Source: Xanthomonas campestris pv. campestris str. ATCC 33913
GTDB taxonomy: Bacteria > Pseudomonadota > Gammaproteobacteria > Xanthomonadales > Xanthomonadaceae
Direction: 5' to 3'
Assembly (NCBI RefSeq): GCF_000007145.1
Contig: NC_003902.1
Coordinates: forward strand, 2,816,497 to 2,848,496
DNA: 32,000 nt
A model generated the notes under the pieces. The model searched no databases and was not told where the DNA came from. It saw only the letters and a program-made list of their open reading frames with translations. Below are positions 1,635 through 32,000 of the stretch, one piece after another (positions within the stretch are counted from its first letter, which is position 1; each line of letters opens with the position of its first letter). A program made the translations under genes and the position numbers.

Positions 1635-1639
1635 CACTG

Positions 1640-14554: not shown

Positions 14555-14580
14555 AGCTTACGACACACTGGTGATACACC

Positions 14581-15667: not shown

Positions 15668-18043
15668 TCACGCCGACTCCAGCACCCAACATCCGAACAC
15701 AGGCCCGGCCGAGTAGCCGGTCTCCGGTTCGATGCGGATCTGCAGGGTGGCGCGTCCGGCGACCGCTGCTGGCAAGGCGTAATCCACGTCGACGAAGTCC
15801 AGGCCGCGGTTACCGTCGAGGCGTTCGTTGGCAATAAGTTCGCCGTCGGCGAGGATGCGAAAGCGGCGGCGGGTTTCGTCGCCCCAGTAGCGCAGGCGCA
15901 GCACGCGGGCGGTTGCGGTGTTGCGCAGGGTAAAGGCGATGAAGCCGCCGGTGCGGGCGTCACGGCCGGCGCGGCGGCGGTAGCTCAGTGCGTAGGAGCC
16001 GTCGCTCTGCAGGGCGTGCGCTTTTTCAGACGCGTCGTCGCCCAGGGCGACCCAGTCCAGTGCACTGGCATCGAGCGCACGCTGGCGTGCGGCTGCGGCG
16101 TCCTGTTCGGCCTGGCGTTGCTGCCAGTCGTTGGCACTGCGGTGTTCCAGGTAGACCGCGCTGCGGCGGTCGAACTGCGCGTAGAACGGTGAGAAGCGCC
16201 ACTGTTGGGCGCCATCGCTGTAGACGTAGCTGCCCTGCCCCGCCGCTGGTTGCAGCTGCTGCAGGACCTCGTCACCGCCGATCAGCGCCAGCGTCTTGCC
16301 CGACCACGGCGTGGCGGCATCGCCCAGATCTGCCGCCAGCACCAGTGGTCCGCGCAGCACCGAGACCCAGGCGGGGTCATCGGGCGTGGCTTCCAGCCGC
16401 AATGGCATTTGCAGGCTGAGGTTGAGCGTGTCGCCTGGGTGCCAGATGCGCGTGACCCGCAGATAGCCATCGACAGCCGCTGCGTCCACGACCGCGCCAT
16501 TGAGCTGCAGCACCGGCGCGGCCGCCCAGCCGGGTACCCGCAGCGAGAGCGTGCGCTGCGCTGCCGGCGCAGCGTCGATGCGCAGCGAGACGCTGCCTTG
16601 CGCCGGCAGCGCGCTGTGCAAGGTCATGTCAAGCCCGGCTGCGTTCCGCACGCGTGACGGCACATACAGATTGATCGCCACGCCCTGCCCGTCTTCCCAG
16701 TAAATCGAGTCACCGAACTGGGCGTGCGCTTCCATGCCGCTGCCGACGCAACACCAGAAATCATCGAACGGCGATGACCAACCGCGTGCCTCACCGGCCA
16801 GCATCGGTGTCATGTAGGTGAACATGCCGGTGCGTGGATGCTGCTGCGCCATCACGTGATTGAGCAGCGTGCGCTCGTAGTAATCGAAGTACGCGGCTTG
16901 CGGACCCCATTGGTACAGGTGCCGGGTGAGCTTGAGCATGTTGTAGCTGGAACAATGTTCGCAGGTCTGCTCGGTGAGAAAGCGCGCAATGCTGTCCGGC
17001 TGCTGGAAATATTCGCGGTCGCCATTGCCACCGATTACATAGCTGTGATGGTCGGTGACTGTATTCCAGAAGAAGCGCGCCGCCGCGCCGGAAGCCGCAT
17101 CACCGGTCACCTCGTATTCGCGGGCCAGGCCGATGAGCTTGGGGATGTTGGTGTTGGAATGCTGGTGCACCAGTTCGTCGCGTTGTGCGACCAGCGGATC
17201 GAGCACGGCGTGGTGATGCAGGCGTTGCGCCAACGCCAGCCACTGCGCATCGCCGGTGCGCACATGCAGCTCGACGAAGGATTCGTTGAGGCCCCCGAAT
17301 TCGCACGACAGCACTTTCTGCAACTGCGCATCGTCGAGTACGGAAAACACCGCTTGCAGATAGCCAGCTAAGCCCACCGCCACCTGCAGTGCCTGCGCGT
17401 TGTCGCAATGCACATGCACGTCGAGCAGGCCGGCGAACAGCTTGTGCCAGGTGTACAGCGGTGCCCAGCTGCCGTTGAGATAGAACGGTAGCGGCTCGAT
17501 CTTGCCGCGTTTGAGTTCGTCGAACACCTCGCGGCCACTCTCGATCTGGCCGGCCGCATTCTTGCGGGTGAAGCCGGCCACGTAGCCATCGCCGGCATGC
17601 GCCTGGCAGCGTGCGAGTTCGGCCACCAGATAGCTGGCGCGCGTGCGGCACTGCGCATCGTCGGTTTGCGCATGCATCAGCGCCAAGGCACTGAGGTAGT
17701 GTCCCAGCGTGTGGCCGGCGATGGTGTCCGCTTCCCAGCCACCGTAGGCGGGGGCCTTGGGATCGAGACCGGCGTACAGCACGAAGTTGTGCAGCAAGCG
17801 GTCCGGCTGCAAGCGCATCAGATAACGGCGATTGGTGTGCAACGCATCCAGAAACAGCGACGGCATCAGCCGCACCTGCGCCAGCGGCACCGCGCGGATG
17901 CTGCCGGGCTGCGCCGCGGCGGCCTGGGCTGGAAAACGCAGGAATCCGGCCGCCACCGCCAGACTGCTCCAGGCCAGAAACCGACGCCGCGACAGGCTCA
18001 GCGCAGCATCGTTCACGTCATCATTGGGGTGTGCATGCGTCAT
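15668..18043 (-). CDS. GH127 (DUF1680) beta-L-arabinofuranosidase, Tat-exported
   Basis: 791 aa with ATG at 18043. Twin-arginine signal LSRRRFLAWSSLAVAAGFLRFPAQA. GH127 blocks are present: IAGHTLGHYLSALALM, HSNTNIPKLIG, TEQTCEHC, and the vicinal Cys pair FWCCVGSGMEAH (TGT TGC at 16748-16753). This corresponds to the Zn-binding Cys/nucleophile arrangement known for HypBA1. There is an extra C-terminal beta-sandwich-like region. Confidence 0.88.
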   Translation of the reverse strand: MTHAHPNDDVNDAALSLSRRRFLAWSSLAVAAGFLRFPAQAAAAQPGSIRAVPLAQVRLMPSLFLDALHTNRRYLMRLQPDRLLHNFVLYAGLDPKAPAYGGWEADTIAGHTLGHYLSALALMHAQTDDAQCRTRASYLVAELARCQAHAGDGYVAGFTRKNAAGQIESGREVFDELKRGKIEPLPFYLNGSWAPLYTWHKLFAGLLDVHVHCDNAQALQVAVGLAGYLQAVFSVLDDAQLQKVLSCEFGGLNESFVELHVRTGDAQWLALAQRLHHHAVLDPLVAQRDELVHQHSNTNIPKLIGLAREYEVTGDAASGAAARFFWNTVTDHHSYVIGGNGDREYFQQPDSIARFLTEQTCEHCSSYNMLKLTRHLYQWGPQAAYFDYYERTLLNHVMAQQHPRTGMFTYMTPMLAGEARGWSSPFDDFWCCVGSGMEAHAQFGDSIYWEDGQGVAINLYVPSRVRNAAGLDMTLHSALPAQGSVSLRIDAAPAAQRTLSLRVPGWAAAPVLQLNGAVVDAAAVDGYLRVTRIWHPGDTLNLSLQMPLRLEATPDDPAWVSVLRGPLVLAADLGDAATPWSGKTLALIGGDEVLQQLQPAAGQGSYVYSDGAQQWRFSPFYAQFDRRSAVYLEHRSANDWQQRQAEQDAAAARQRALDASALDWVALGDDASEKAHALQSDGSYALSYRRRAGRDARTGGFIAFTLRNTATARVLRLRYWGDETRRRFRILADGELIANERLDGNRGLDFVDVDYALPAAVAGRATLQIRIEPETGYSAGPVFGCWVLESA

Positions 18044-18193
18044 CGGACCAGCTTAGCTCCTGTAGGCAACGGCGCAGTGCGCACGCGGTTGCAGTCTGCG
18101 GTGGTCGGCCTTGCGCTCGGCGGTGTTGCGGCGTCGTTGCGACGATGGAACGCAAGCGCCGGCTGCACGCACACACGCCCACCACTGCGCCAG

Positions 18194-21070
18194 TCAGAAC
18201 TTCACCGTGGCACGCGCCCAATAGAACCGGCCCAACAAATCGTAAGTAGCCACGTCAGTATTGGCGTTGCCAACATTGTTGGAGTAATACAGCGGCGGCT
18301 GCTTGTCGGCGATGTTGTCCACGCCCACTTCGAAACGCGTGTGCCACGGTTGCACCTCGTAGCCCAGCTGCAGATTGTTGTAGACATAGGCGCCGATCTT
18401 GCGCACCACGGTGGGCTGGCTGGAATCGGCCGACAGGCTCTGATCCGGATCGGAATTGCCGATGGCGGTATTGCCGACGTAACGGATGCGCCAGGTTGCG
18501 CTCCAGTCGCCCAACGCCCAGCTCACCGTGCCCAGGCCACGCCAGCGCGGGAAGTTGCCATAGGCCTGGGTGTAGCGGCCCACATTGTGGATGGTGACCG
18601 AGCTGGGGTCGGTGGTGTCGGGCAGCACGTCGTAGCGCGTGAGATAGGTACCATTGAGGCCTACATTGACGTTACCCCATGCGGTTTCCGGCAGACGATA
18701 GGTCAGGTTGAAGTCGATGCCCTTGGCCCACAGCTTGCCCAGATTTACGGTGGGCTCGGCGATGTAGTTGATGGTGCCATTGCCGTTGCGATGGATCAGC
18801 GGGCAGAACGCGCTGGCAGAATTTGCATAACACTGATTGAGCACGGTCTGCGCGGAGACGGTGGTGATGGTGTCTTCCAGATCGATGCGCCACCAGTCCG
18901 CGCTCAGCGAGAGGCCATCGATCCATTGCGGGTCGTACACCAGGCCCACATCATAGGACTTACCGGTTTCCGGCTTGAGCTGGTAACCAGCAACCGCTGC
19001 GCCGGAGACCTTGCCCGACACCTGGCCATCGGACTGCTGATAGCTGCCATCGGTGGGCACGTTGGCACATGCAACGCTGCTGCCGCCGGTGTAGCCATTG
19101 CATGGGTCATTGACGGTGGCCGCATCGCCGGCCACGCCGGCGTACAGCTCGTTGATATTGGGCGCGCGGAACACCTGCGAGACCGTGCCACGCAGCAGCA
19201 GGTTTTCGATCGGGCGGTACTCCAGCGACACCTTGCTATTGGTCTTGCTGCCCACCGAGCTGTAGTCGGAAAACCGCGTGCCCAGGGTGATGTTCAAGGC
19301 ATTGATACCCGGCAGGTCCTTGAGCAGCGGGAACAGCGCTTCTGCATAGGCCTCCTTGACATCGAAGCTGCCGCTCAACGTGGAGGCGCAGTATTCGATC
19401 ACGCCGCACAAGCCGTCCTCATCGCCCGTCCACAACGGGTCGGAGGTGGTGGTGGAGCGCTCCTTGCGATACGACAGACCGGCCGCCAGGCTGGCTGCGC
19501 CGGCCGGCATATCAAACAGCGTGCCGTTGGCATTGGCCTCGAACTGCTTGACGGTGTAGACGCTGGTGACAATCGGGTTGACCACCATGCCCTGCAGGGT
19601 GGCGAGGTTGGAGCTGTCGTTGAGGTTGAAGAAATTTAGCGGCGTGCAGCCGGCGATCGCCGCGCCCGCGCTGCCGCACTTGACCACGCCATCGCTGTCC
19701 AGGAACGACGGACCGATGGCCTGATTGAAGGTGGCGTAATCCAGGAAGCCGTTGTTGATCGACTTCTGCTTGACCTTGCCGTAGTTGAACGTGGCATCCC
19801 ATTGCCAGGAGCTGTCACCGAAGCGCCCGCGCAGCCCGGGGCTGATCTGGAAGTTGTAGGTGTTGTACTGGTAGCTGCGATTGCCCAGCACGGTGGCGCG
19901 GGTATTGAAGTCGTTGTACGAGGTGCCGGAGCTGCGATCGGTGCCGAAATTCACCCCGAATGGGTTGTAGTAACTTTGCGACGACACCAGGATGTTGTCG
20001 CCGTTGGAAAAGATCGGGATCGGCGCAATGATCGAGGCGGATTCGGTTTTGCTGAACCACGTGTTGACGTAGCCCTCCACACTGTCGCTGAAGCGATACG
20101 TGCCCAGCACAAAGGCATTGGTGCGCTTTTGCGGTGTCTGCAGCAGGTTGAACGGCTGGTAGTTGTAGGAATCGGCAGCGGCGTCGTAACAATGGAAATC
20201 GCCGGGCCCGGCACGGCCGCTGACACCGCCATTGAGGGTGACACGCGTACAGCCATTCGCTTGTCGCAGCTGGCTTGACGCGTCGGAGCCATCGTTGAAA
20301 TTGACGGTGCCGGTGGGCGTTGCGGAGGAGCCCTGCTTCACCGGCACGCCATCGGTGAGCGCCAGCGCATCCTTGGAATAGTCACGCGCGGCGGCAGAAA
20401 CCGGGTCGATGTTGTGATACGACAGACCCGCAATCAGGCTGCCACGCTCGAAGGTCTTCCCGGCGGTGAGCGCGAAATTGCGGCGATTACCATCGCGCTC
20501 CTTGCTGGTGCCGAAGTCGCTACTGAATTGCACACCATCAAAGCGCGTACGCAGGATGAAGTTGACCACACCACCAATGGCATCGGACCCATACACCGCC
20601 GACGCACCATCGCTGAGTACCTCGATGCGTTCGATCATGCTGGCCGGAATGGCATTGACGTCGTTGTAGGCAAGCCGAATGCCGTTGACCAGGACCAGCG
20701 TGCGCTTGTCGCCCAGACCACGCAGCGATACGGCCGACGCACCGGTGCCGCCGCCATTGTTGGTGTACGGGTTGGTGGCATTGCCGGCAATGGACGGCAG
20801 CTCCTGCAACAGGTCGCCTACAGTGGCCTTGCCGGTGGCGGCAATCTGCTCCTGGCTGACGGTCACCACCGGGTTGGCGGTTTCGGTATCCACTCGGCGC
20901 AGGCGCGAGCCGGTGACCACCACGCTGTCGAGTGTCTGTGTTGCATCGCCGGCAGCTGGGGTCTGTTGCGCATGCAGATCCGCCCCCACTGTCAGGCCCA
21001 GGGCTGCGGCGACGGAAAGACTCAGGAACGAAGGACTGCGCACCGGACGTAACGGCAAAGAAAACGACAT
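18194..21070 (-). CDS. TonB-dependent outer-membrane receptor (CUT-locus type)
   Basis: Track ORF 18194..21094. I prefer the ATG at 21070 because CCGAGGAGTTCCG-ATG provides a strong SD (GAGGAG, 5-nt spacer). The signal peptide is MSFSLPLRPVRSPSFLSLSVAAALGLTVGADLHA, the TonB box/plug is LDSVVVTGSRL and LSDGASAVYGSDAIGGVVNFI, and the C-terminus is YWARATVKF. Several Cys pairs occur in predicted loops. Confidence 0.92.
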   Translation of the reverse strand: MSFSLPLRPVRSPSFLSLSVAAALGLTVGADLHAQQTPAAGDATQTLDSVVVTGSRLRRVDTETANPVVTVSQEQIAATGKATVGDLLQELPSIAGNATNPYTNNGGGTGASAVSLRGLGDKRTLVLVNGIRLAYNDVNAIPASMIERIEVLSDGASAVYGSDAIGGVVNFILRTRFDGVQFSSDFGTSKERDGNRRNFALTAGKTFERGSLIAGLSYHNIDPVSAAARDYSKDALALTDGVPVKQGSSATPTGTVNFNDGSDASSQLRQANGCTRVTLNGGVSGRAGPGDFHCYDAAADSYNYQPFNLLQTPQKRTNAFVLGTYRFSDSVEGYVNTWFSKTESASIIAPIPIFSNGDNILVSSQSYYNPFGVNFGTDRSSGTSYNDFNTRATVLGNRSYQYNTYNFQISPGLRGRFGDSSWQWDATFNYGKVKQKSINNGFLDYATFNQAIGPSFLDSDGVVKCGSAGAAIAGCTPLNFFNLNDSSNLATLQGMVVNPIVTSVYTVKQFEANANGTLFDMPAGAASLAAGLSYRKERSTTTSDPLWTGDEDGLCGVIEYCASTLSGSFDVKEAYAEALFPLLKDLPGINALNITLGTRFSDYSSVGSKTNSKVSLEYRPIENLLLRGTVSQVFRAPNINELYAGVAGDAATVNDPCNGYTGGSSVACANVPTDGSYQQSDGQVSGKVSGAAVAGYQLKPETGKSYDVGLVYDPQWIDGLSLSADWWRIDLEDTITTVSAQTVLNQCYANSASAFCPLIHRNGNGTINYIAEPTVNLGKLWAKGIDFNLTYRLPETAWGNVNVGLNGTYLTRYDVLPDTTDPSSVTIHNVGRYTQAYGNFPRWRGLGTVSWALGDWSATWRIRYVGNTAIGNSDPDQSLSADSSQPTVVRKIGAYVYNNLQLGYEVQPWHTRFEVGVDNIADKQPPLYYSNNVGNANTDVATYDLLGRFYWARATVKF

Positions 21071-21515: not shown

Positions 21516-23282
21516 TCATCGGCAGGGTTGTGGCTCGAACTGATGGCCGTTGGTATTCCAGTTCCGATCCAGGCCATCGTCGCCTTTATAGGCATAACAG
21601 GTCGCGGCCGGGCCCACTAGCGGAGTGGCGCCCTGAATACTAACCTCATAGGGAAACCGCGCAGCTGCCTGGCCCGCCAGCTGCTCTTCCCCGGTAGGCA
21701 CCTCGGAGTAGCGATACGGCGTGGCGGTGACCACCAGGTAGTGCGTGATGCCTTTACCGCCTTGCAGCGGGAATGACGCAGTCGCCGACGCAGTGCCGTC
21801 CACCGCAACCAACGGCGCGTAGCGCGGATGCGCCTGGGCATCCAGTGAGACCACAGTGAATCGCCACGACGCCTGATCAGCGCGGGTCTTGCCGGTCAAG
21901 CTGACCTTGATCGAGGTCGCCGAGCTCAGCGGCGTCAACGGAATCACGTGCGTGCCGTAGATGTTCAACGGGCGCTCCGGCGACGATGCGTAGCGGCCGG
22001 GCGCCGCCAGGGGCTTGAGCGGCACATAGCGTTTGCCAGCGGCGTTGCCGTTGCCGATATCGAGCATCGCCTTTTGGCTGACGAAGTCGAACGCCGCTAA
22101 ACGTGCGCCATAGCGGCCCACGGTGTCGGCGAACGAACGATACCCGTTTGGAAACTGCCCGCCCTGCTGACCCAGGCGCACCAGGGTCTCTACCGGCAGT
22201 TCCAGGGTGTCGCCATCGGCATTGCGCAGGTTCTTCAGCCACATGTCCCAGACCAGTGACCGGGTGGCATCGTTTTCGTCCAGATACATCAACCACGGAT
22301 GCGCGCCGTAGCGGCTTTGCGGAAAGAACGGGCCGTTTTCCAGATTCGAGTAGTAGTACGCCAGCCATTGGTCGTCCATGCGCGTTGTCTGGTACGCGCT
22401 CCAGTTGGCGTTGGTTTCCCAGAACCACCCGGCCGCCTGCTTGTTGCGATAGCCGCCGCTGTAGAACTGGATGACATGGGTAAATTCGTGTGCAATCGAG
22501 AATGACCCATAGCCCAGCGCCCACGACGAGGCGCCGATGGCCTGACCACCGGAGGCGCCGCATTCGGTAAGGTCTCCGCCTTGCACATAAGGTAGGCCGG
22601 TTGCGCACATGTACACATTAATGCGCTTGGGTTTGGCTGCAGTTGCATACGGCATCGGTGCACCGAGCGCCTGTGCGTTCATGTCCCAAACCTGCTCCAG
22701 CCAACGCGCGCTTTGGGCGACAAAATCCTTCCACACCAGTCCCCGGCTGGCCACGTCGCGGTAACTCTCGCCATTGCGATCGATGCCGTACCACAACGCA
22801 AAGTGCTGCGTTTCGTACTTCTGCACAGAACCATTGGCCAGCATCGCGGCAGTGACCGTCTCGGGCTCGGCCTCGGTGACATAGCGGCGGGTGTCCTTGC
22901 GGATTGGATGTGCCTTGGCGACATTGGCAACATAGCGGCGGTCAGGCTCTCCAAACGAATTGAGTTGATAGCGCCGGCGGCAGCCATCGGCACTCTCCAG
23001 CACCACCGTGCGCCAGGATTGCGAAGACGCCTCCCCGACGGCAACGACCAACCTGGCATCGAAGGGCTGCCCCTGCGCAATGCCGGCGTTGTTCGGTTTT
23101 CCGGCGTCCGGTTGCCCATTGTTGGGCGTCCAGGTGCGTAGCGGCTGCGCCGCCCCCCAGGGATAGCGTTGCGAGAGGCTCTGGCAACCGACCGTTTCGT
23201 CCGCCATTGCCAGGCTGGGCAGCGACATCGAAAGGACGGCGCCAAGTATCCAGCGCGTGACGGGGATGAGATGTTGCGTCAT
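21516..23282 (-). CDS. Secreted putative zinc metallopeptidase (HEXXH-X19-E, gluzincin-like), family not recognised
   Basis: 588 aa. ATG at 23282 has GGAG 8 nt upstream. Signal peptide MTQHLIPVTRWILGAVLSMSLPSLAMA/DE. HEFTH is encoded by CAC GAA TTT ACC CAT at 22476-22490 (minus strand). A Glu lies exactly 20 residues after the second His (WFWETNANW, 22416-22418), which is the thermolysin-type spacing. The C-terminal roughly 200 aa look like a beta-sandwich domain. Confidence 0.7.
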   Translation of the reverse strand: MTQHLIPVTRWILGAVLSMSLPSLAMADETVGCQSLSQRYPWGAAQPLRTWTPNNGQPDAGKPNNAGIAQGQPFDARLVVAVGEASSQSWRTVVLESADGCRRRYQLNSFGEPDRRYVANVAKAHPIRKDTRRYVTEAEPETVTAAMLANGSVQKYETQHFALWYGIDRNGESYRDVASRGLVWKDFVAQSARWLEQVWDMNAQALGAPMPYATAAKPKRINVYMCATGLPYVQGGDLTECGASGGQAIGASSWALGYGSFSIAHEFTHVIQFYSGGYRNKQAAGWFWETNANWSAYQTTRMDDQWLAYYYSNLENGPFFPQSRYGAHPWLMYLDENDATRSLVWDMWLKNLRNADGDTLELPVETLVRLGQQGGQFPNGYRSFADTVGRYGARLAAFDFVSQKAMLDIGNGNAAGKRYVPLKPLAAPGRYASSPERPLNIYGTHVIPLTPLSSATSIKVSLTGKTRADQASWRFTVVSLDAQAHPRYAPLVAVDGTASATASFPLQGGKGITHYLVVTATPYRYSEVPTGEEQLAGQAAARFPYEVSIQGATPLVGPAATCYAYKGDDGLDRNWNTNGHQFEPQPCR

Positions 23283-23477
23283 TGTCGGGTCTCCAAAACG
23301 AAGTGCAGGGATGCATGTGAATCGGGTCGTGCAAGTGGGCAGTGGGATCGCCGGTCGGTCTTGCGATGCAGCCGCGATTACCGATGAGCTGCGGGAGACG
23401 CCGACTCACAAGCGCAGTTTTTCGGCGGCGTTCGGCTGGATCGCCACGTTGCGCAACGCCGGCCTGCCAATCCGTTG

Positions 23478-25820
23478 TCATGGCGCGGGCACTGCGGCAG
23501 AGACCTGATTCCACTCCGGCGTCGGAGTGCGGTGCAACCAGCGCTGGAAAAAATCCAACAGGCGGCGCTTGCCGTAGTCACCGCCTGCGCCGTGATCGCC
23601 GCCGGGCACCACCAGCAGGTCGAAATCCTTGCCCGCCTTGATCAGGCGATCGGCCACCTGGAAGGTGCTGGCAGGATCGACATTCTTGTCCATGTCGCCG
23701 GTGACCAGCAGCAAATGGCCCTGCAGGCGCGCGGCGTTTTCCACGTTCGAGGATTCGGCGTACCACGGCCCCACCGGCCAGCCCATCCATTGCTCGTTCC
23801 ACCAGATCTTGTCCATGCGATTGTCGTGGCAGCCTGAGTTCGCCACGCCGGCCACGTAGAACTCGGGATGGAACAGCAACGCGCCCAGCGCGTTCTGCCC
23901 GCCGGCCGAGGTGCCGTACACGCCCACCCCGCCGCGAATGTCGTACCAGGGGTAACGTGCGGCGGCCGCCTTGTGCCAGGCGATGCGGTCCGGCAAGCCG
24001 GCGTCTTTAAGATTGCGCCAGGCCACGTCGTGAAAAGCGCGCGAGCGGTTGTTGGTGCCCATGCCGTCGATCTGCGCCACCGCAAAGCCGAGCCCCGTCA
24101 GCGGCGGCGTGCGCGTGGTGAAGCGCTTCGGCACGAACGAGCCCTGCGGCCCGGCGTAGATGTATTCGACGACGCGATACGGCTGCTGGGCATCGAGCTG
24201 CTGGGGGCGGAAAATGACGCCCCAGATCTCGGTCTTGCCATCGCGCCCGGGGGTATGGAACGGCAACGGCGGCTGCCAACCGGCCGCCAGCAGGTGGCTT
24301 AGATCTGTGCGCTCCACCGTGTGTACCAGGCTGCCATCCGCACTGCGCCGCAGCTCCAGTACCGGCCCCAGGTCCACGCGCGAAGACAGGTCCAGAAACC
24401 AGCGCCCGTCCGGCGAATAACGCACATCATGATCGGCGGCCAGCGGGGTCAGCGCGGTCAGGCCGGTGCCGTCCAGGCCGATGCGATAGGCATGGCGGTA
24501 GTACGGGTCTTCACCGGGTTGCATGCCGGAGGCGCTGAAGTACACCTGCCCGGCCGCCTCGTCGACATGATCGAGCCTGCGCACCACCCACTCGCCACGG
24601 GTGACCTGGCGCATCACGCGACCAGTGCGGCCATCGTAGAGATACAGGTGTTCCCAGCCATCGCGCTCGGAGGCCCACAGCAGTTGCGCGCCATCGGCAA
24701 GATCGTGGCGCGCGTACTTGCCGCCGTCTTCGTTGTCGCCACTGAGTGGCGAGTACTCGATAAAGGTGGGCGAGGTTTCCTCGATCACGGTGCGCGCAAC
24801 GGCGGTGCCTGCATCCACTTCGATCACGCGGTACAGCTGATGCCCACGGGCGTTGTATTCGAAGGTCACGCCGCGGCTGTCCTTCCACCATTGCAGCTCG
24901 CTAAGGGTGAAGGCGTTGGGCAGCAGGGTCATGTCCACCGGGCGCGCGGTGCGCGTGGCCACGTCGAACAGCACTGGCTGCATCACCGGCAATGGGTCGC
25001 CGGGCTTGGGATAGACCTGCTGATGCAGCTTGGGTTGCACGCGATCGGCCGGCGCCGATTCGATGTAATACACGATGTGCGGCGGCGGCGCCTTGACCCG
25101 ATAGGCGGCCACATGTTGCGAGTCGGGCGACCACACCACCGTGTCGATGGCGTAGAAGTCGCTCGCACTGCCATCGTCACTGATGGCCGTTGGCGTGCCG
25201 CCGCCCACCGGGGCGATCAGCAGATTGCCCTGCTCCACCCACACCCGCCAGCGCCCGTCCGGCGAGTGCTTGGCATAGCGCTCGCCCTGCTTGAGCGGGA
25301 AACTCATGTCCATCGACTCGGGCCGCACATCGCGCTCGGGCAGGTGCGTGCAGCGGTAACGTACCAACTCGCACTGCCAGCCAAGATCTGCCAGCTGAAA
25401 GCGCAGCGTCTGCTGTTCCAGCGCTGGATCCTGCAAATGCAACGCTGCCGCATCCACGTTGTGTGCGCCGGCCTGGGTCAGCGCGGCGGCAAGACGTGCG
25501 TGGTCGAAGGCCGGCGTGTTGCGCCCGCTGGCGGCGTCCACCAGCCGGTACGCGATCGCCGGCGCCTGGCCCTGGCGCATGCTCCCGCGCCGGTACAAAA
25601 AGCGCTGCGCATCCACCCATACCGGCGCGCTGGGCTGGCGGTCGACCAGGGCGTCGTAGCGGTCGGTCAACCCGATCGCCGCGGTGTACTGCGCCGGTGT
25701 GGGCTCGGCAGGCTGCGCCGCCGCGTGCGCCAGCGTTGGCAGCATGGCAATGCTTAGACAGCACGCGATAAGGAGACGAAATTGCGACAGGCGCGCGGGA
25801 CGTTGCAACTGCAGGAGCAT
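23478..25820 (-). CDS. S9-family serine peptidase (DPP-IV / prolyl tripeptidyl peptidase-like: beta-propeller plus alpha/beta hydrolase)
   Basis: Inner ATG (cat at 25818-25820) gives MLLQLQRPARLSQFRLLIACCLSIAMLPTLAHA/AAQP, a signal peptide. Catalytic triad blocks are present: nucleophile YGTSAGG (Ser codon at 23907-23909), TGDMDKNVDP, and VVPGGDHGAGG. There is a DPP-IV-like N-terminal propeller (WSPDGRW and YSPDGRWF repeats). The upstream part of track ORF 23478..26039 overlaps the GH43 C-terminus and is rejected. Confidence 0.88.
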   Translation of the reverse strand: MLLQLQRPARLSQFRLLIACCLSIAMLPTLAHAAAQPAEPTPAQYTAAIGLTDRYDALVDRQPSAPVWVDAQRFLYRRGSMRQGQAPAIAYRLVDAASGRNTPAFDHARLAAALTQAGAHNVDAAALHLQDPALEQQTLRFQLADLGWQCELVRYRCTHLPERDVRPESMDMSFPLKQGERYAKHSPDGRWRVWVEQGNLLIAPVGGGTPTAISDDGSASDFYAIDTVVWSPDSQHVAAYRVKAPPPHIVYYIESAPADRVQPKLHQQVYPKPGDPLPVMQPVLFDVATRTARPVDMTLLPNAFTLSELQWWKDSRGVTFEYNARGHQLYRVIEVDAGTAVARTVIEETSPTFIEYSPLSGDNEDGGKYARHDLADGAQLLWASERDGWEHLYLYDGRTGRVMRQVTRGEWVVRRLDHVDEAAGQVYFSASGMQPGEDPYYRHAYRIGLDGTGLTALTPLAADHDVRYSPDGRWFLDLSSRVDLGPVLELRRSADGSLVHTVERTDLSHLLAAGWQPPLPFHTPGRDGKTEIWGVIFRPQQLDAQQPYRVVEYIYAGPQGSFVPKRFTTRTPPLTGLGFAVAQIDGMGTNNRSRAFHDVAWRNLKDAGLPDRIAWHKAAAARYPWYDIRGGVGVYGTSAGGQNALGALLFHPEFYVAGVANSGCHDNRMDKIWWNEQWMGWPVGPWYAESSNVENAARLQGHLLLVTGDMDKNVDPASTFQVADRLIKAGKDFDLLVVPGGDHGAGGDYGKRRLLDFFQRWLHRTPTPEWNQVSAAVPAP

Positions 25821-25894
25821 GGGTCGATCCAGGTGAGAAAGCCGGTGATGGGTGGAGAGAAATGTAGGCAGCGGTTGCGTTGTCGTCAGCGCAA

Positions 25895-27493
25895 TCACGG
25901 CGCATCGCAGTGGCGGCTGTCGGCGTCCGTGGCGGCGGGCAGTTGCTGCGGCTGCGGTGCCAGTACTTCCCACTCCTGCACGGCGAAGGCGGCGTAGCTG
26001 GGGCCGGAACCGGACGCATCGAACACCGCACGCACGCAACGCGTGGTCACCGGTGAGAACGACACAGCCTCATAGCGCCCGGTCCGTGTGCCATAGCGGT
26101 CACTGGCCTGCACAGGCACCCAGTGCCCACCCTGGCGATATTCCAGATGCCAGCGCGCCGGTGGCGCCACGCCGATCTGCGCGCCCGTCGGTTGGTCGGC
26201 CCAGAACACGATGCGGGTGCGGTCCAGCGTCACCAGCTGTGCCCAGCTGTACTGAATCCATTGCTGCGGCGGGTTGTCTGGCATCCAGCTGCCCCACAGC
26301 TGTGGCGGCAGCGGATTCGCTTTGACGATGCCGTCGTTGAGCGCTGCCATCCAGTACTGCACGGGAATATCCGGGCCGTTGGAGGCGCTGGCGTAGGCGG
26401 CTGGCGCTTGGTTGCGCTGCGGCTGCATCGGCGGTTGCGGGCGCCGCGTCGGCGTGATGGTGCGGATGCTGGCCGGCTGCGTGCCGTCGTCCCATTGCAG
26501 GCGATCGATCGCCACGCTGCGACGGAAATGCCCACCGCCGGCGGCATCGGCGGTGTGGTAGACCAGATACCACTGGCCGGCAAAGGCGACGATGCCCGGA
26601 TGGGAGGTGGTCGAACTCACCGGTGGCAGCACGATGCCGCGATACGTCCACGGCCCCAGTGGCGTGGGCGCGCTCGCATACGCGATGCACGCGTGATACT
26701 GCGTTGGCGTGCATGCCGAGCCGCGCCCGGCATTGTTGGCGGCATATGCCAGGTAGTAGGTGCCCTTGCGCTTGAACAACCAGGGCGCCTCGAAATAGCC
26801 GCCCAGCGTGTCCACCGCCACCGGCGTGCCCTTGAAGCTGACCATGTCGCGCTGCAGCTCCACGCCGTACAGCGCGCCGAAGGTGCCCCAGTACAGATAC
26901 ACGCGGCCGTCGTCATCCACCAGCACGGTGGGATCGATGTTCTGGATGGTGTTGGGCGTGGGCACCGACTGCGACACGATCGGCCCCTGTGGATGTGCAT
27001 CGGTCCACGGACCGAGTGGGCTGTCGGCCACCGCCACGCCGATGCCGAATGGATCGGCACTGGACGCGTTGCGCTGCTGCACTGGCGCATACAGGTAGTA
27101 GCGGCGATCGGGCCCTTGCACGATCTGCGCTGCATAGGCGTGGCGTTTGCCGGCCCAGGCGAACACGGCGTGCGGGCGCAAAAAGTCGCGGTAGTGGCTC
27201 CAGTTGCCGCGTTCGGGGTCGCCGGTCACAAACAATTGCCAGCCCGGCATGACGAAGTCGTTGCGCTCCGGGGGCGCGGTGTCGCGCCCGGCCAGGATGT
27301 AGAGCTTGCCATCGGCCACCAGCGGCGCCGGGTCGGCCGAATACGTGCTGCCGTCGGCCAGGATCGGGTTGCCCGGCGCGTGCAACTGCACGGGCTGCGC
27401 TGGCACTGCCGCGCATGCCGGAACACTGACCAACCACAAGGTCGTCGCGAAGATGCGTGCGCACGCACGCGCGCACATAACGCTCCACTTCAT
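25895..27493 (-). CDS. GH43 five-bladed-propeller glycosidase (candidate alpha-L-arabinofuranosidase) with C-terminal discoidin-like binding module
   Basis: Inner ATG (cat at 27491-27493) overlaps the stop of the upstream giant gene (ATGA). Signal peptide is MKWSVMCARACARIFATTLWLVSVPACA. GH43-like blocks are present: NPILADGSTYSADPAPLVADGKLYILAG, YAPVQ, DPTVLVDDDGRVYLYWG, FEAPWLFKRKGTYYLAY. The C-terminal roughly 150 aa are homologous to a module in the giant protein. The 122 upstream codons of the track ORF are an overlap artefact. Confidence 0.85.
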   Translation of the reverse strand: MKWSVMCARACARIFATTLWLVSVPACAAVPAQPVQLHAPGNPILADGSTYSADPAPLVADGKLYILAGRDTAPPERNDFVMPGWQLFVTGDPERGNWSHYRDFLRPHAVFAWAGKRHAYAAQIVQGPDRRYYLYAPVQQRNASSADPFGIGVAVADSPLGPWTDAHPQGPIVSQSVPTPNTIQNIDPTVLVDDDGRVYLYWGTFGALYGVELQRDMVSFKGTPVAVDTLGGYFEAPWLFKRKGTYYLAYAANNAGRGSACTPTQYHACIAYASAPTPLGPWTYRGIVLPPVSSTTSHPGIVAFAGQWYLVYHTADAAGGGHFRRSVAIDRLQWDDGTQPASIRTITPTRRPQPPMQPQRNQAPAAYASASNGPDIPVQYWMAALNDGIVKANPLPPQLWGSWMPDNPPQQWIQYSWAQLVTLDRTRIVFWADQPTGAQIGVAPPARWHLEYRQGGHWVPVQASDRYGTRTGRYEAVSFSPVTTRCVRAVFDASGSGPSYAAFAVQEWEVLAPQPQQLPAATDADSRHCDAP

Positions 27494-30400
27494 GGCGTGG
27501 CCGCCTTGATCTGCAGCATGAGTGGCACCGCCACCTGCCCGGTCGGCACGCGCCCTTGCGCAGTGCCGGTCAGAGGGATCTCGCCCGGTTGCGCGTAGCG
27601 CGCTGGCGCCAGCGCCGGCCAGTGCACTGGCACGCGTTCGCGCGAGCCGTCGTTGTATTGCAGGCTGACGAACCCCGGCAGCGTGGGTGCCTGCCCCACC
27701 ACCGCCATGACCACCGGCAACGGCTGCACGGCCGTGATCTGGCCCGGCGGCGTGGCGCGCACCCAGAGCGTGGCCTTGATCGGCACCACGCCTTCCACCA
27801 GGCCCTGCACCTCGACCTTGCCCTCGCTGGCCAGTCTTTCGGATGCAACATCCGGCCACTGCACCGCCACCGGCAACACGCTGCCATCGGCATAAAACGC
27901 GGTGACCTCCTGCGGCAGCGTGGGCAGCTCACCCGGCGCGGTGCGCAGATCGATCGGCTCCAGCTGCCTGGGCACGTCCGACCACGCCTGCCATTCGTCC
28001 ACGCCGATCGCTGCGCGCCCGGTGCCCAAGGTTTGCGTGGTCAGCACCGCACGCAGGCCGGTGGTGACGATGGGCGCAAAGCTCACCGTGCTGACCGCGC
28101 CATTGGCGGCCACCGGATACCCGCTGCGGGCCGACACGTCCTGCCAGCGCCCGTCCTGCAACGTCTGCAGTGTCCAGCTGGCGGGTGGCGCCACGGCGCC
28201 GTCGGGTTGATCGCTCCAGAAATACAGCGTGCTGGACGACAGCCGCACCGGTCGCGGCCATTGGTAGTGCAGCCACACCGTCTGCGGCTGCGCGCGGCCG
28301 TAACTGCCCCAGCGCCGGCTGCCGTTGGGCGTGCTGTCCGCCGCAGGGAGGACGCCGTCGTTGAGCGCCTGCACGCGGTACTGCGTGCCGGTGAGCTGAG
28401 CGCTGACCGTGGCTAGGCTCTGCAGCGCAATGCGCTCAACAGGCGGCGATGCAGGCGCGTTCACCTGCACATCGGCGTGGCCGGCCAACGCGCCGTCGTT
28501 GGCAGCCAGCCGCAAGGTGTAATGCCCTGCCTGCGTGAAACGCACTGTGGTCTGCACTGCCGCAGGATCGGCGAATACCACCTCGCCGCCAGACGGGCCT
28601 TGCAGCAGCGACCAGCGCACCTGCAGCGCGCCGCTGGGCAGGCCATCGTCACCCACACGCCCGTTCACCCGCACCGTGCCGTCGGCACCGGGCGTGTCCA
28701 GCTGCCAGGCCTGCACCTGGGGCGCCACATTGCCCACGAACGCGGGCGGCGCCTGGCTGCTGTTGAAGACCTGCAGTTCCTTGATACCGGTGCGTGCACT
28801 GCCGGCATGCGTCACTACCACCCGCAGCGCCTGCGCACGCAGTGGCGGGAAACGCACCCGATTGCGGTTGCCCTCGGCAATCAGCGCATCACGCACCTGC
28901 CCCGGTACGTCCTTCCAGCTGCCGCCATCCTGGTACTGCACCACGTACATCCATGGTGCGGCGTAGCCAGGCCGGGTTCCCGAGGGGAAGCCGTGCTGCT
29001 CGCCGCCGGGCGACGAGCTGCGATAGAAGTACAGCACCACCTGATCCACCTGCCGGCTGCCAGCGAACCGCAGCGCGAGCCAGTCGCTGGCCGCCGGCGA
29101 GCCTGCGGTGCCCCAGAACGGCGTATTGGCGGTGCTTCCGTCCACCGCCGCCGCAGCCGCGAACCCGGGCGTGGCGAAGCTGGCGGTGGCCTGCGCGCCG
29201 TGTGCAAGATCCAGCCGCGCCGCCGCGGGTAATGTCACATCCAGCCCGGCCTTGGCCAGCACCTGCGCCGCGCGTGAGGCGGGAGCGAACGCCACCTGCG
29301 TCATCGTTGCCAGGTGCGCCGGGTGCGTTTCCAGCACCTGTACCGCACCGGCAGGGTTGACCGCGTCGGGCAGCGCCGTCACTTGCCCGCTCGCCGGGTC
29401 GTAGAGCACATGCGCCAGCCGGTCGATACGGAACGCCAGCCGGCCATCCAGATACACGCTATAGCCCTTGGGCACCTGGCCGGCGTAGTGGGTGCCATCA
29501 CGGTCCCAGACGATGCTCAGGTTGCGATCGCGGTAGCGCAGGTTATCGGCAGCGAAATGTTCCCAGCCGATGTCGATCGGATACAACTCGATCTGGTTGT
29601 CGCTGCGCGGGCGCAAGCCCATCGCATCTTCGATCATGCTGAAGTTGGTTGCGCCCAGCTGGGTGTGGTGGATCCACGAGCGGTAGCCGATCGTGCCGCC
29701 GTTTGCGGCGCTGCCCTTGGACCAGAATTCGTTCTGATCCGGGTAACGGTTGTCGCCATTGATATACGTCGCCCACGCATTCCAGTACAGCAACGTGCGG
29801 TAACTGTGCGCACTCAGATACGGGCTGGGGTAATCGCGTAAGGCTGCGCCCAGCAAGCGGAACGCAACCGTTGCATTGATGGTTGAAAAGTTATTGCTGC
29901 CCGCCTCTGCGCCGCTACCGCGCGCATGCAGATCGACCTGATTTGCCGTGTAGAACGGAAACAGCGGGTACTGCGCGGCATCGGCAAACAGGCGCAAGGC
30001 GCGGATGTACTTGGGGTCGTCGTCGGCATCGCCGTGCTTAGGCATCAGGCCCACGCTGAAGGGGTAATAGTTATTGGTTTCCTTCCAGTCCACCGGCAGG
30101 CGCGGGCCCTTGGCCTGGCGGTGCTTGAGCAGATCGCCGGATAATCCCACCGAATCGGCCGTGCTGCTGCGGTCCTGCCACAATACCTCCAGCACCGCCT
30201 TGCGGATGCGCGCCGCAGTGGTCTGCATGCGTTGCGCGGTCCCGCTGTCACCGGCCAGCTGCGCGGCCTGCGCGGCCGCGTGCGCATTGGCGTACACGTA
30301 GGCGCTTTCGGTGCGGTCCATGCGGATCTCGCCGTGTTGCTTTGCCCAGTCGAAGGACACCGCATCGGCGTCGTTGCCGGTCATCGCGGCCCAGTCGTAC

Positions 30401-31851
30401 TCGATCAAGCCATTGTGGTTGAGATCGTAGGCAGCCAGTACGCCATCCACGTCGCCACTGCCATAGCGCGCCAACTTGCTGGCCAGCGCCGGTGGGCCAC
30501 CATGCACCTGCAGCGAGCGCCAGGCCGCGGCGGTGATGGACTGTGCGTAGGAGTTGGACCAGTTTTCCGGCGATCCGGGGTTGTCCACATACTTGCCACC
30601 GCCTGCGGTTTCGCCGGCGCTGAGCCAGCTGCCGTAGGCGTAGATCGGGTCGCGCAGATACTTCAAATCGTCCAGAAACATGCCGGTGGTCAGCACGATG
30701 GCATTGTTGTAGCCCAGCACGCCTTCGATCGCGACCGGGAACTGGTAATCGTTGCCTGGCACATTGGCATCGAGAAAGTTGAAACGCAGCACCCACCAGC
30801 GGTAGAACAGGCTCTTGGTGATGTTCGCGTTGGGCGTGTCCAGATACGGCACGTTGTCCACCCACCAGCGGTTGTAGCGGGCCACATGCTGCTGATACGC
30901 CTGCTGCGGCGATTGCCCGGCAATGCGGTCGTACTCGGCCTGGGCCTCCGGTAGCTCGTGCGTGAGCAGGCCCAGCTGCACCTTGATGGGCGCCGCCTCG
31001 CCGGTGGCGGGTACGGCCACCTCACGCACCAAGCGGGCACCGTCCACACGAAAGCCATCGCCTGACAGCCGCGGAAACACCGTGGTGATCGCGTTGTAGG
31101 CATCGAATGCGCCCGTCAGCGCAGCGCCATCGGCATGCGTTGCCATCGGTGAGCGCGCCTGCACTGACAGCGTATGCGGCGCACCATCCAGGCTGGACAG
31201 CACAAACGTGGCGACCGCCACGTTCTGCTCGGTGATGTATTTGACCAAACGCATCCGCACCCCGGCGCCCGCATCTTCGAACACGGTGCTGAAGTAGCTG
31301 GTCGTCTGCCGCCGCTGCTGCGGCTGCTCGTTCCACTGCACCTCGCGCGTGCCTTGCGTGGACTGCAAGTGGAACAACGCGTCGTAGTCGGTGGCATGCC
31401 AGTACGCTACCTGGCCAACGAACCCCGGCTGCTCGGGAACGTGCGAAGACAGATACGCGGCGCGGCCGCGCGTGAACAGCCAGTTGTTCTCATCGTCGAA
31501 TCCGCCGCCGGTGCCCTCGCGCACCAGCATGCGGTCCACCCAGAAGTCGTTGCCCGGCACCTGCCCTGCACCGCGTGCGACATCGGCCGCGAAGATCCTG
31601 GCCAGCTGGCCATCCGGCGCGAAGGCCACGCCGCTTTCGGGCACCGGATGCGCCAGCCCGCGAAAGCGTGGTTCGCCAATGGCAGCATTGGCCTTGACCA
31701 CCGGCGCTTCCTGCGCCTGCTTGGTACCAGCCGAAGCCGTGCTGGTGACGAAGAGCACCAGAAGACACAGCGCTGCCAAGCCTACGCGCTGCGCCCGCAA
31801 GCTCAGGCAGCTATGCATGCGCTGCACCACGATCAACCCCAAACGCTGCAT
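27490..31851 (-). CDS. Giant secreted multidomain glycoside hydrolase. N-terminal (alpha/alpha)6-type catalytic region (candidate GH121 beta-L-arabinobiosidase-like), then F5/8-type-C, PKD/Ig-like, discoidin-like module and 2x Big_4-like repeats
   Basis: Track ORF 27490..31887 (1465 aa, GTG). I prefer the ATG at 31851 (GGAG 7 nt upstream); another ATG at 31818 gives MHSCLSLRAQRVGLAALCLLVLFVTSTASA. Approximate domain calls from sequence follow. F5/8-type-C at about 28738-29211 (AAAVDGSTANTPFWGT...DQVVLYFY...IKELQVF). PKD-like at about 28444-28737. Discoidin-like module at 27982-28443. Two LPxxVxxxYxDGSxxxVxVxW Big_4-like repeats at 27493-27981. The GH121 assignment is inferred from context (GH127 and GH43 partners) and is not verified. 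Confidence 0.8.
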   Translation of the reverse strand: MQRLGLIVVQRMHSCLSLRAQRVGLAALCLLVLFVTSTASAGTKQAQEAPVVKANAAIGEPRFRGLAHPVPESGVAFAPDGQLARIFAADVARGAGQVPGNDFWVDRMLVREGTGGGFDDENNWLFTRGRAAYLSSHVPEQPGFVGQVAYWHATDYDALFHLQSTQGTREVQWNEQPQQRRQTTSYFSTVFEDAGAGVRMRLVKYITEQNVAVATFVLSSLDGAPHTLSVQARSPMATHADGAALTGAFDAYNAITTVFPRLSGDGFRVDGARLVREVAVPATGEAAPIKVQLGLLTHELPEAQAEYDRIAGQSPQQAYQQHVARYNRWWVDNVPYLDTPNANITKSLFYRWWVLRFNFLDANVPGNDYQFPVAIEGVLGYNNAIVLTTGMFLDDLKYLRDPIYAYGSWLSAGETAGGGKYVDNPGSPENWSNSYAQSITAAAWRSLQVHGGPPALASKLARYGSGDVDGVLAAYDLNHNGLIEYDWAAMTGNDADAVSFDWAKQHGEIRMDRTESAYVYANAHAAAQAAQLAGDSGTAQRMQTTAARIRKAVLEVLWQDRSSTADSVGLSGDLLKHRQAKGPRLPVDWKETNNYYPFSVGLMPKHGDADDDPKYIRALRLFADAAQYPLFPFYTANQVDLHARGSGAEAGSNNFSTINATVAFRLLGAALRDYPSPYLSAHSYRTLLYWNAWATYINGDNRYPDQNEFWSKGSAANGGTIGYRSWIHHTQLGATNFSMIEDAMGLRPRSDNQIELYPIDIGWEHFAADNLRYRDRNLSIVWDRDGTHYAGQVPKGYSVYLDGRLAFRIDRLAHVLYDPASGQVTALPDAVNPAGAVQVLETHPAHLATMTQVAFAPASRAAQVLAKAGLDVTLPAAARLDLAHGAQATASFATPGFAAAAAVDGSTANTPFWGTAGSPAASDWLALRFAGSRQVDQVVLYFYRSSSPGGEQHGFPSGTRPGYAAPWMYVVQYQDGGSWKDVPGQVRDALIAEGNRNRVRFPPLRAQALRVVVTHAGSARTGIKELQVFNSSQAPPAFVGNVAPQVQAWQLDTPGADGTVRVNGRVGDDGLPSGALQVRWSLLQGPSGGEVVFADPAAVQTTVRFTQAGHYTLRLAANDGALAGHADVQVNAPASPPVERIALQSLATVSAQLTGTQYRVQALNDGVLPAADSTPNGSRRWGSYGRAQPQTVWLHYQWPRPVRLSSSTLYFWSDQPDGAVAPPASWTLQTLQDGRWQDVSARSGYPVAANGAVSTVSFAPIVTTGLRAVLTTQTLGTGRAAIGVDEWQAWSDVPRQLEPIDLRTAPGELPTLPQEVTAFYADGSVLPVAVQWPDVASERLASEGKVEVQGLVEGVVPIKATLWVRATPPGQITAVQPLPVVMAVVGQAPTLPGFVSLQYNDGSRERVPVHWPALAPARYAQPGEIPLTGTAQGRVPTGQVAVPLMLQIKAATP

Positions 31852-32000
31852 GCGCGCACTCCGTGCAGGTGAAAAGGCACGACGCACGGCAGCGCACTCG
31901 GCGTGACTGGACCGATGGCTTTGCGCCGTGCTGCCCGCCCGCCGGCTCTCCGCTCGGTTGTGCGGCGGTCATCCACCATACGCGGCCAGGACGTGGGGCA

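Follow-up and report, generated by a model that had tools for sequence, protein, structure and literature searches.

Here we examine a candidate extensin-degradation locus in a 32,000-nucleotide stretch of the Xanthomonas campestris pv. campestris (Xcc) ATCC 33913 genome (NC_003902.1, positions 2,816,497 to 2,848,496; hereafter the window). On its minus strand, between positions 15668 and 31887, six large open reading frames (ORFs) lie head to tail, all of them real by an ORF check of the window. An original prediction made from the sequence saw in these genes a system joining beta-L-arabinofuranoside glycosidases to two secreted peptidases and a TonB-dependent receptor (TBDR), which would harvest glycopeptides from plant extensins and other hydroxyproline-rich glycoproteins (HRGPs). 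We find the idea reasonable, partly supported by the evidence presented below and partly anticipated in the literature.

Gene content of the locus

The gene order begins with a predicted GH121 beta-L-arabinobiosidase (glycoside hydrolase family 121), the HypBA2 orthologue (27490..31851, XCC2399/XC_1713/XCV2729), followed by a predicted GH43 alpha-L-arabinofuranosidase, the HypAA orthologue (25895..27493, XCC2398 xsa/XC_1714/XCV2728). Next come a serine peptidase filed as S9B, of the dipeptidyl peptidase IV (DPP-IV) / prolyl tripeptidyl peptidase type (23478..25820, XCC2397/XC_1715/XCV2726), and the predicted gluzincin AvrXccA2, a member of Pfam DUF6055 (21516..23282, XCC2396/XC_1716). The series ends with a TonB-dependent outer-membrane receptor (18194..21070, with an alternative ATG at 21094, XCC2395/XC_1717/XCV2725) and a predicted GH127 beta-L-arabinofuranosidase, the HypBA1 orthologue (15668..18043, XCC2394/XC_1718/XCV2724). 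The maximal GH121 ORF, 27490-31887, opens at a GTG at 31887; the ATG at 31851, which gives a 1453-aa product, is likely the true start, and the same product is annotated in public Xcc genomes. Identical proteins of 1453 and 588 aa occur in the same gene order in many complete Xcc genomes, including CP000050.1 (strain 8004).

The common strand, the family calls and the junction sizes had all been described correctly: GH121 and GH43 share a 4-nt ATGA overlap (27490-27493), and the gaps that follow GH43 measure 74, 195, 445 and 150 nt in gene order. It also stood up that every product carries an export signal. Judged by eye from the translations, GH121, GH43, the S9 peptidase, AvrXccA2 and XCC2395 have Sec-type leaders, and GH127 has a twin-arginine (Tat) leader with the motif SRRRFLAW. 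A sigma-70 promoter scan of 15000-32000 returned none, terminators were at chance level, the 150-, 195- and 445-nt gaps read by eye gave nothing decisive on promoters or operon structure, and a PHROGs search produced no match.

Several of these genes already had names or suggested roles, contrary to the original prediction, in which the peptidases and the receptor stood unexplained and AvrXccA2 appeared as an unclassified gluzincin. Table S3 of Blanvillain 2007 files the locus as “CAZy associated TBDR”; it lists XCC2400 (XC_1712/XCV2730) as a second TBDR, XCC2399 as “hypothetical”, XCC2397 as a peptidase and XCC2396 as “avirulence protein avrXccA2”, absent in X. euvesicatoria, X. citri and X. 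oryzae. A prolyl oligopeptidase gene beside the xehyp genes led Nakamura 2018 (PMC6085000) to propose HRGP degradation.

Three glycosidases with characterized orthologues

The GH121 protein matches the HypBA2 structure (PDB 6m5a) at E=5e-204 over residues 48-872, and scores 1095 bits against the NCBIfam HypBA2 model NF041578, under an equivalog cut-off of 3200 that is tuned to the Bifidobacterium protein. Behind its Sec leader are a catalytic (alpha/alpha)6 region, an F5/8-type C domain, a PKD-like domain, DUF7402 and two Big_4 domains. The three acids found essential in HypBA2 by mutagenesis, E383, D515 and E713 (Saito 2020, PMC7263609), all have equivalents in the alignment, lying within AIEGV, TGNDAD and DQNEFW. 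GH43 matches Pfam PF04616 (126.9 bits, residues 51-338), the five-bladed propeller domain, and has a galactose-binding-like domain at its C-terminus. GH127 matches PF07944 (469.9 bits) and PF20736 (83.1 bits) and carries DUF6805. Its sequence contains the motifs CEHC and WCCVGSG, which may correspond to the cysteine nucleophile and the Zn-binding Cys/Glu cluster of HypBA1.

Compared with the X. euvesicatoria locus, the proteins are 78% (GH121), 80% (GH43) and 86% (GH127) identical, and by sequence they are orthologues of XeHypBA2, XeHypAA and XeHypBA1. In that species XeHypAA takes the alpha-1,3 arabinose off Ara4-hydroxyproline (Ara4-Hyp), XeHypBA2 frees beta-Ara2 from Ara3-Hyp, and XeHypBA1 takes arabinose off Ara-Hyp while handling beta-Ara2 poorly (Nakamura 2018, PMC6085000). 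Sequential removal of Hyp-arabinosides by GH43, GH121 and GH127 is established for close orthologues, and is predicted from sequence for Xcc; the original prediction had named the precedents from Bifidobacterium longum and X. euvesicatoria correctly (PMC6085000).

A HrpX-type promoter just beyond the window

No plant-inducible-promoter (PIP) or hrpII box lies within the window. The sequence beyond its end was read in locus L001 of an Xcc genome that has an identical GH121 and, over the shared bases compared, matches the window at the end motif and at ATG 31851. There, a PIP box, TTCGT-N15-TTCGC, lies 11 nt past the window end (window-equivalent 32011-32035), ~160 nt upstream of the GH121 ATG, and is followed after 30 nt by TATGGT, a -10-like hexamer inside the window (31975..31980, minus strand). 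The arrangement agrees with the rule for the HrpX regulon (TTCGB-N15-TTCGB, then 30-32 nt, then a YANNNT -10 box). Box and spacing are kept upstream of GH121 in X. euvesicatoria, X. axonopodis, X. phaseoli, X. vasicola, X. bromi, X. cissicola, X. prunicola, X. maliensis, X. dyei, X. sp. Leaf148 and one X. hortorum, and the box is absent upstream of GH121 in X. arboricola, in early-branching species and in non-Xanthomonas loci. The cluster is thus older than its entry into the hrp regulon.

Published expression data are consistent with this promoter. In X. euvesicatoria, xehypBA2-AA is a co-transcribed operon in which the stop codon of the first gene overlaps the start of the second; it has a PIP box, depends on HrpX and is switched on in planta (PMC6085000), so that HrpX-type control of at least GH121-GH43 is shown by orthology. 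In X. campestris pv. raphani, hrpG* raises avrXccA2 34-fold and the adjacent peptidase 29-fold (PMC4652430). In Xcc 8004, deletion of rpoE1 lowers XC_1713 (GH121) and XC_1715 (S9) together with hrpX and the hrp cluster; the AvrXccA1 gene moves in the opposite direction, rising in the same mutant, and XC_1716 (avrXccA2) is not in the table (PMC6085468).

Two secreted peptidases

The S9 protein has an intact ORF and matches DPPIV_N PF00930 (155 bits) and Peptidase_S9 PF00326 (143 bits), and its nearest solved structures are bacterial DAP4 and Porphyromonas gingivalis PTP-A (E ~1e-40). The nucleophile motif is kept (GVYGTSAGG versus GVYGWSNGG of P. mexicana DAP4, 5yp1). The double-Glu motif, which in canonical DPP-IV holds the N-terminus of the substrate, is not: EFVADEEM of S. 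maltophilia DPP-IV (2ecf) corresponds to DFYAIDTV, and the Asp of its Asp-Thr pair lines up with the Glu in the GIE motif of P. gingivalis PTP-A. Since the double-Glu is replaced by Asp-Thr, we do not file the protein as a canonical DPP-IV; by sequence we file it as S9B-type and presumptively prolyl-directed.

AvrXccA2 matches PF19527 (DUF6055) at 121.8 bits, against a gathering cut-off of 27. A profile built from its homologues matched 645 clusters among 1.84 billion representatives; 31 homologues all share H265, E266, H269 and E289, and nearly all of them keep six cysteines. The AlphaFold model (pLDDT 89, pTM 0.89) opens with a beta domain at the N-terminus, continues with a helical catalytic core that holds HExxH...E, and closes with a beta-sandwich at the C-terminus (420-555). 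A Foldseek search with the full model left the catalytic core unmatched and found the C-terminal sandwich weakly similar to carbohydrate-binding modules (target TM 0.35-0.5), and the DUF6055 profile gave only a chance-level match among PDB sequences.

The closest functional relative is Svx, a gluzincin of Pectobacterium atrosepticum (2022, PMC9266454) that cuts carrot extensins (2026, PMC13164431) and is a type II-secreted virulence factor (PMC9266454, PMC13164431). The AvrXccA2 profile matches P0405, a bona fide Svx-family protein (807 bits to the NCBIfam Svx/AvrXca model NF040510), at E=4e-22, and hhalign pairs AvrXccA2 155-561 with residues 83-489 of a 643-residue Svx-family protein at 99.3% probability and ~25% identity. 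As Svx-family proteins themselves match Pfam DUF6055 (267-436 bits), the AvrXccA2 and Svx types are subfamilies of one Pfam family. They have in common the Sec leader, the HExxH...E core and the beta-sandwich that follows it; AvrXccA2 differs in an extra N-terminal beta domain, and a C-terminal left-handed beta-helix (LbH) is found in Svx only. The Sec leader and conserved cysteines of AvrXccA2 favour type II secretion to the apoplast over type III delivery.

We read seven genomic contexts of distant AvrXccA2 homologues (38-45% identity). In two Sphingomonas contexts (L011 10001-15282, L071 8001-13684) genes for a GH36 alpha-galactosidase and an aldose 1-epimerase come after the DUF6055 homologue, and two TBDR genes precede it; as extensin serines carry alpha-galactose, this module could be HRGP-related. 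In one metagenome-assembled genome (MAG) the homologue lies directly after a GH43 gene. Two independent metagenome contigs (L072 12-9809, L074 1583-11093) carry consecutive genes for a TBDR, an M16 peptidase (~955 aa), PNGase A and an AvrXccA2-like DUF6055 protein. The other two contexts were uninformative. Together these neighbourhoods support a glycoprotein substrate in general, not extensin in particular.

Two side observations arise from the same contexts. The arrangement of TBDR, M16 peptidase, PNGase A and DUF6055 looks like a receptor-linked module for degrading plant N-glycoproteins, and it recalls the FusA/FusC system for protein import. One distant DUF6055 homologue also adjoins a phytase and TBDRs, probably by coincidence.

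The history of avrXccA2 hints at being partly separate from that of its neighbours. When compared with X. dyei and X. sp. Leaf148, it shows a synonymous divergence (dS) of 1.2, about twice the 0.5-0.8 of the flanking genes, and its GC content at third codon positions (GC3) is 0.75, compared with 0.80-0.83 in the flanking genes. Raised dS and low GC3 suggest allele replacement or a separate origin.

Receptors and the genes upstream

XCC2395 matches Pfam Plug (86.8 bits) and TonB_dep_Rec_b-barrel (151 bits), and has no N-terminal signalling (STN) extension. Past the window, XCC2400 (L001 6915-9731, window-equivalent ~32121-34937) ends ~120 nt beyond the last window position. This second receptor, 40% identical to XCC2395 (Blanvillain 2007), co-occurs with GH121 more widely than XCC2395 does.

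Further upstream lies XCC2401 (L001 3960-6314, window-equivalent ~35538-37892), a protein of 784 aa with a Tat leader and no sequence match in Pfam, NCBIfam or PDB, whose family comprises 1475 homologue matches. Its structural model (pLDDT 79, pTM 0.85) shows an (alpha/alpha)6 barrel between two beta-sandwiches, and Foldseek relates it to GH95, GH78, GH94, GH127, GH146 and GH116 (E 5e-9 to 1e-4, TM 0.3-0.43). Going by the model, XCC2401 probably represents an unclassified glycoside hydrolase family; that it hydrolyses beta-Ara2 is speculation. The gene for another S9 peptidase, of 778 aa and 45-46% identity to that of the window, extends into the start of a gene for a GH35 beta-galactosidase that carries DUF5597 (L001 1-1666), a pair also kept in Pseudoxanthomonas. 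These two genes may form a second peptidase-glycosidase unit, possibly for arabinogalactan-type HRGPs.

Conservation and selection

Synteny was compared across 55 GH121 loci, one genome per species, searched with the proteins of the window and of the upstream genes. The core order in Xanthomonadales is XCC2401, the TBDR XCC2400, GH121, GH43, and nearly every Xanthomonadales GH121 locus has XCC2401 at its head. The six genes that were first taken as a unit are therefore cut differently by conservation: the core starts upstream of them, and AvrXccA2 is an accessory member. The S9 gene follows GH43 in nearly all Xanthomonas, including the early-branching X. translucens and X. albilineans, at 65-87% identity, and two Pseudoxanthomonas MAG contigs carry a 72% orthologue between XCC2401 and the receptor. 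The receptor XCC2395 together with a GH127 of >80% identity is a mark of clade-2 Xanthomonas. Across Xanthomonas, S9 has thus stayed linked to GH121.

An intact AvrXccA2 gene is confined to X. campestris, X. dyei, X. sp. Leaf148 and X. arboricola pv. juglandis; two other X. arboricola strains and one X. hortorum have decayed remnants. This pattern fits an accessory gene with older presence and repeated loss in that group. S9 or GH121 is broken by frameshift or truncation in X. euvesicatoria, X. bromi, X. populi and X. phaseoli, in agreement with published notes. Our longest-ORF test for pseudogenes is crude in GC-rich DNA, and was used only where several high-scoring segment pairs or clearly short ORFs agreed with published pseudogenes.

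Ratios of nonsynonymous to synonymous divergence (omega) between the window and X. dyei, X. sp. Leaf148 and X. arboricola were 0.19-0.21 for GH121, 0.17-0.21 for GH43, 0.16-0.20 for S9, 0.11-0.20 for AvrXccA2 and ~0.14 for GH127, with the strongest constraint of the six on the receptor XCC2395 (0.06). Purifying selection is as strong on the peptidases as on the glycosidases, and because omega is 0.06-0.21 throughout, the whole six-gene set is kept by selection in Xcc. The frameshifted S9 copy of X. euvesicatoria has been read as the sign of a decaying system (PMC6085000). As applied to Xcc, this “decaying relic” idea of Nakamura 2018 is rejected on the same omega values in all six genes; X. 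phaseoli, X. euvesicatoria, X. bromi and X. populi are the species that it suits.

Proposed function and alternative explanations

We suggest, with a probability of about 0.6, that the locus is the Xcc version of the Xanthomonas cluster for degrading Hyp-arabinosides of extensins and other HRGPs, wired to HrpG/HrpX, with the peptidases and receptors taking part. Secreted GH43 would take the alpha-1,3 cap off Ara4-Hyp, and secreted GH121 would then free beta-Ara2 from Ara3-Hyp. AvrXccA2 may cut the HRGP backbone, perhaps once partly deglycosylated, and the S9B peptidase may trim the resulting Pro/Hyp-rich peptides. XCC2395 and its paralogue XCC2400 would carry beta-Ara2, small Ara-Hyp glycopeptides or both into the periplasm, where Tat-exported GH127, and possibly XCC2401, would finish the imported products, the last arabinose being taken off Ara-Hyp. 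The outcome would be dismantling of the wall or defence matrix together with nutrient scavenging, probably both, and control by HrpX suggests wall attack in planta no less than harvesting. We infer with moderate support that AvrXccA2 and S9 act on the HRGP backbone and that the receptors import the products; the import step by itself, the “harvesting” of the original prediction, we purely infer. The association of the peptidases with the glycosidases draws real circumstantial support from shared hrp regulation, S9 linkage, selection, the DUF6055 kinship with Svx and the contexts of homologues, and falls short in that the extensin domain of Svx is missing.

A number of observations weigh against this assignment. 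For S9, AvrXccA2 and both receptors there is no published activity, and the reporter fusions of XCC2395 and XCC2400 are entered only as “-”, with no value, in the carbohydrate-response table of Blanvillain 2007. The original prediction correctly saw no inner-membrane transporter or regulator in the window and placed them possibly beyond position 32000, and none is found in the 10 kb past that point either. The 195- and 445-nt gaps are without a PIP box, so that any co-transcription past GH43 is putative. AvrXccA2 scores 75.8 bits against NF040510, over profile positions 38-225 of 601, where the cut-off is 625 and true Svx/AvrXca members reach 583-807. Its AlphaFold2 model contains no LbH, and the hhalign match stops at Svx residue 489 of 643. 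In Svx this LbH, or acyltransferase-like, domain binds Hyp-arabinosides and is indispensable for extensin cleavage (PMC13164431); by sequence, AvrXccA2 has the catalytic module of Svx, and is without the module that gave Svx its specificity. None of the seven contexts of distant homologues contains GH121 or GH127 beside the AvrXccA2-like gene. S9 is missing from Dyella, P. helianthi, [Pseudomonas] boreopolis and all actinobacterial and other non-Xanthomonadales loci, and frameshifts break it in X. euvesicatoria, X. bromi and X. populi; most species that have the cluster are without AvrXccA2. Finally, single and triple glycosidase deletions leave the virulence of X. euvesicatoria unchanged and this species does not grow on arabinose; a glycosidase deletion in Xcc is also stated to leave virulence unchanged, as data not shown (PMC6085000).

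Some of these points would be expected of a composite neighbourhood, in which only GH121-GH43 and GH127 act on Hyp-arabinosides and the remaining genes are a general prolyl peptidase, an acquired virulence or avirulence protease and an unrelated receptor. Such an origin would account for an accessory AvrXccA2, counted in 3 of ~35 Xanthomonadales loci and as remnants in 3 others, for its doubled dS against X. dyei and lower GC3, for distant homologues that never sit beside GH121 or GH127, for long intergenic gaps without a PIP box and for an S9 gene that several lineages dispense with. It leaves unaccounted for the co-induction of both peptidases by hrpG*, the joint response of GH121 and S9 in Xcc 8004, an S9 gene still linked to the cluster after rearrangement, and peptidases under purifying selection equal to that on the glycosidases, while Svx homology and homologue contexts indicate a glycoprotein substrate. 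We regard this explanation as unlikely, though less so than the two that follow.

A further alternative keeps the enzymes together and drops the harvest of peptides: under HrpX they would, during infection, dismantle papillae and wall reinforcements in which extensin is present, and the receptors would import at most beta-Ara2 or serve otherwise. The two strongly constrained receptors of the locus are hard to place in such a scheme, the core and receptors occur also in soil Pseudoxanthomonas and in Dyella without a PIP box, and Tat-exported GH127 and XCC2401 would suit periplasmic processing of imports; glycosidase deletions that leave virulence unchanged are likewise unexpected of a weapon. 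Purely offensive use would fit the PIP promoter and hrp-regulon behaviour, the restriction of the box to pathogenic clades of the type III secretion system (T3SS) type, the inability of X. euvesicatoria to use arabinose, and Svx being a virulence factor. It would fit, too, a metalloprotease known from Xcc culture supernatants that is specific for proline- and hydroxyproline-rich glycoproteins (P/HRGPs) and degrades extensins, not casein (Dow 1998, as described in PMC9266454). On balance we think it improbable, and more doubtful than a composite origin.

That AvrXccA2 is instead a type III effector delivered into plant cells, unrelated to apoplastic extensin, is very improbable: it is listed as a candidate effector from its 34-fold hrpG* induction in X. 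campestris pv. raphani, but it has a classical Sec leader ending AMA/DE (cleavage between A and D), six near-invariant cysteines that suit an oxidising compartment and a gluzincin core whose homologue Svx is type II-secreted, and its paralogue AvrXccA1 was dropped by the catalogue's own authors, there being no evidence of type III secretion (PMC4652430).

The degradation cluster that we favour also has a bolder form, which we put forward tentatively and consider unlikely to hold as a whole. AvrXccA2 would here be an HRGP/extensin-specific endopeptidase with a recognition module other than that of Svx, and possibly the product of the gene for the orphan gp120-degrading metalloprotease, specific for P/HRGPs, that was purified in 1998 from Xcc. 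The island, made up of XCC2401, the two receptors, GH121, GH43, GH127, S9, AvrXccA2 and perhaps the upstream S9-GH35 pair, would be the first TonB-dependent pathway for uptake of Hyp-glycopeptides.

Relation to known systems

The nearest counterpart, XCV2724-XCV2730 of X. euvesicatoria (PMC6085000), is orthologous and syntenic, with a receptor 93% identical to that of Xcc and the same ATGA-type overlap, PIP box with TATGGT, upstream receptor and 784-aa protein. It differs in that S9 is frameshifted and avrXccA2 absent, whereas in Xcc both are intact and under purifying selection; the activities of the X. euvesicatoria glycosidases were assayed, whereas those of the Xcc enzymes are read here from sequence. 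The HypBA cluster of B. longum uses the same three families sequentially on Ara4-Hyp, and its GH121 has identical essential residues. There, an ABC importer and a cytoplasmic GH127 take the places of the TonB-dependent receptors and Tat-exported GH127 of Xcc; unlike those of B. longum, the Xcc enzymes are without membrane anchors, and HrpX control is specific to Xanthomonas.

Carbohydrate utilization loci containing TBDRs (CUT loci) in Xanthomonas, such as those for sux, xylan and pectin, likewise place a TBDR beside degradative enzymes (Blanvillain 2007). The Xcc locus has the TBDR and the carbohydrate enzymes by which CUT loci are defined, and is not a full CUT locus, because it is without an inner-membrane transporter and a sugar-related regulator. 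It further differs from CUT loci and polysaccharide utilization loci (PULs) in being controlled by HrpX and not by a substrate-responsive repressor, and in having no SusD-like partner. A comparable pairing of glycopeptidases and glycosidases occurs in Bacteroides mucin PULs with M60-like peptidases.

The gp120-degrading protease comes from the same organism and is zinc-type, secreted and HRGP-cutting, as would be expected of an enzyme of the AvrXccA2/AvrXccA1 type (Dow 1998, as described in PMC9266454). Only hypothetically is it the product of an AvrXccA-type gene; the papers on it, as far as they are represented here, name no gene.

Our search found no literature linking avrXccA2, the receptors and the HypBA enzymes as one system, and none combining GH121, Xanthomonas and TonB-dependent transport; a 2026 review of Xanthomonas and plant cell walls mentions neither extensin nor HypBA. 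What is new here is the PIP promoter past the window, the linkage of S9, the purifying selection, the AvrXccA2 remnants and homologue contexts, and the upstream receptor and glycosidase-like protein.

Other features of the window

The spacer between htpG and GH127 (14555-15667) has the lowest GC content of the window, 0.59-0.61, and contains a 237-aa ORF of no family on the plus strand (14787-15500). Since other Xcc strains carry RHS-repeat toxin genes, a SymE toxin or an AAA protein at this position, it appears to be a strain-variable islet. On the minus strand at 249-5319, a purple acid phosphatase (249-1907), a phytase-like protein (1640-2761) and a TonB-dependent receptor (2758-5319) form a candidate TBDR locus for scavenging phytate or organic phosphate. 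A GH9 cellulase with CelD_N (6427-8391) and a gamma-glutamyltranspeptidase (8471-10252), also on the minus strand, are both exported and related to plant polymers or peptides.

Conclusions

Extensins reinforce plant walls and papillae against bacteria, and their removal by pathogens is poorly understood. Because X. campestris has the complete set of genes, where X. euvesicatoria, in which loss of the known glycosidase half gave no virulence phenotype, has a broken S9 and is without the metallopeptidase, it is the organism of choice for asking whether deglycosylation and proteolysis of these proteins act jointly. In Xcc the same locus also bears on which gene encodes an HRGP protease that has been an orphan for 25 years, and on whether TonB-dependent receptors import glycopeptides. 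If the proposed function is true, “AvrXccA2” would move from putative type III effector to secreted wall-targeting peptidase, and testable functions would become available for Pfam DUF6055 and for the unannotated XCC2401 family.

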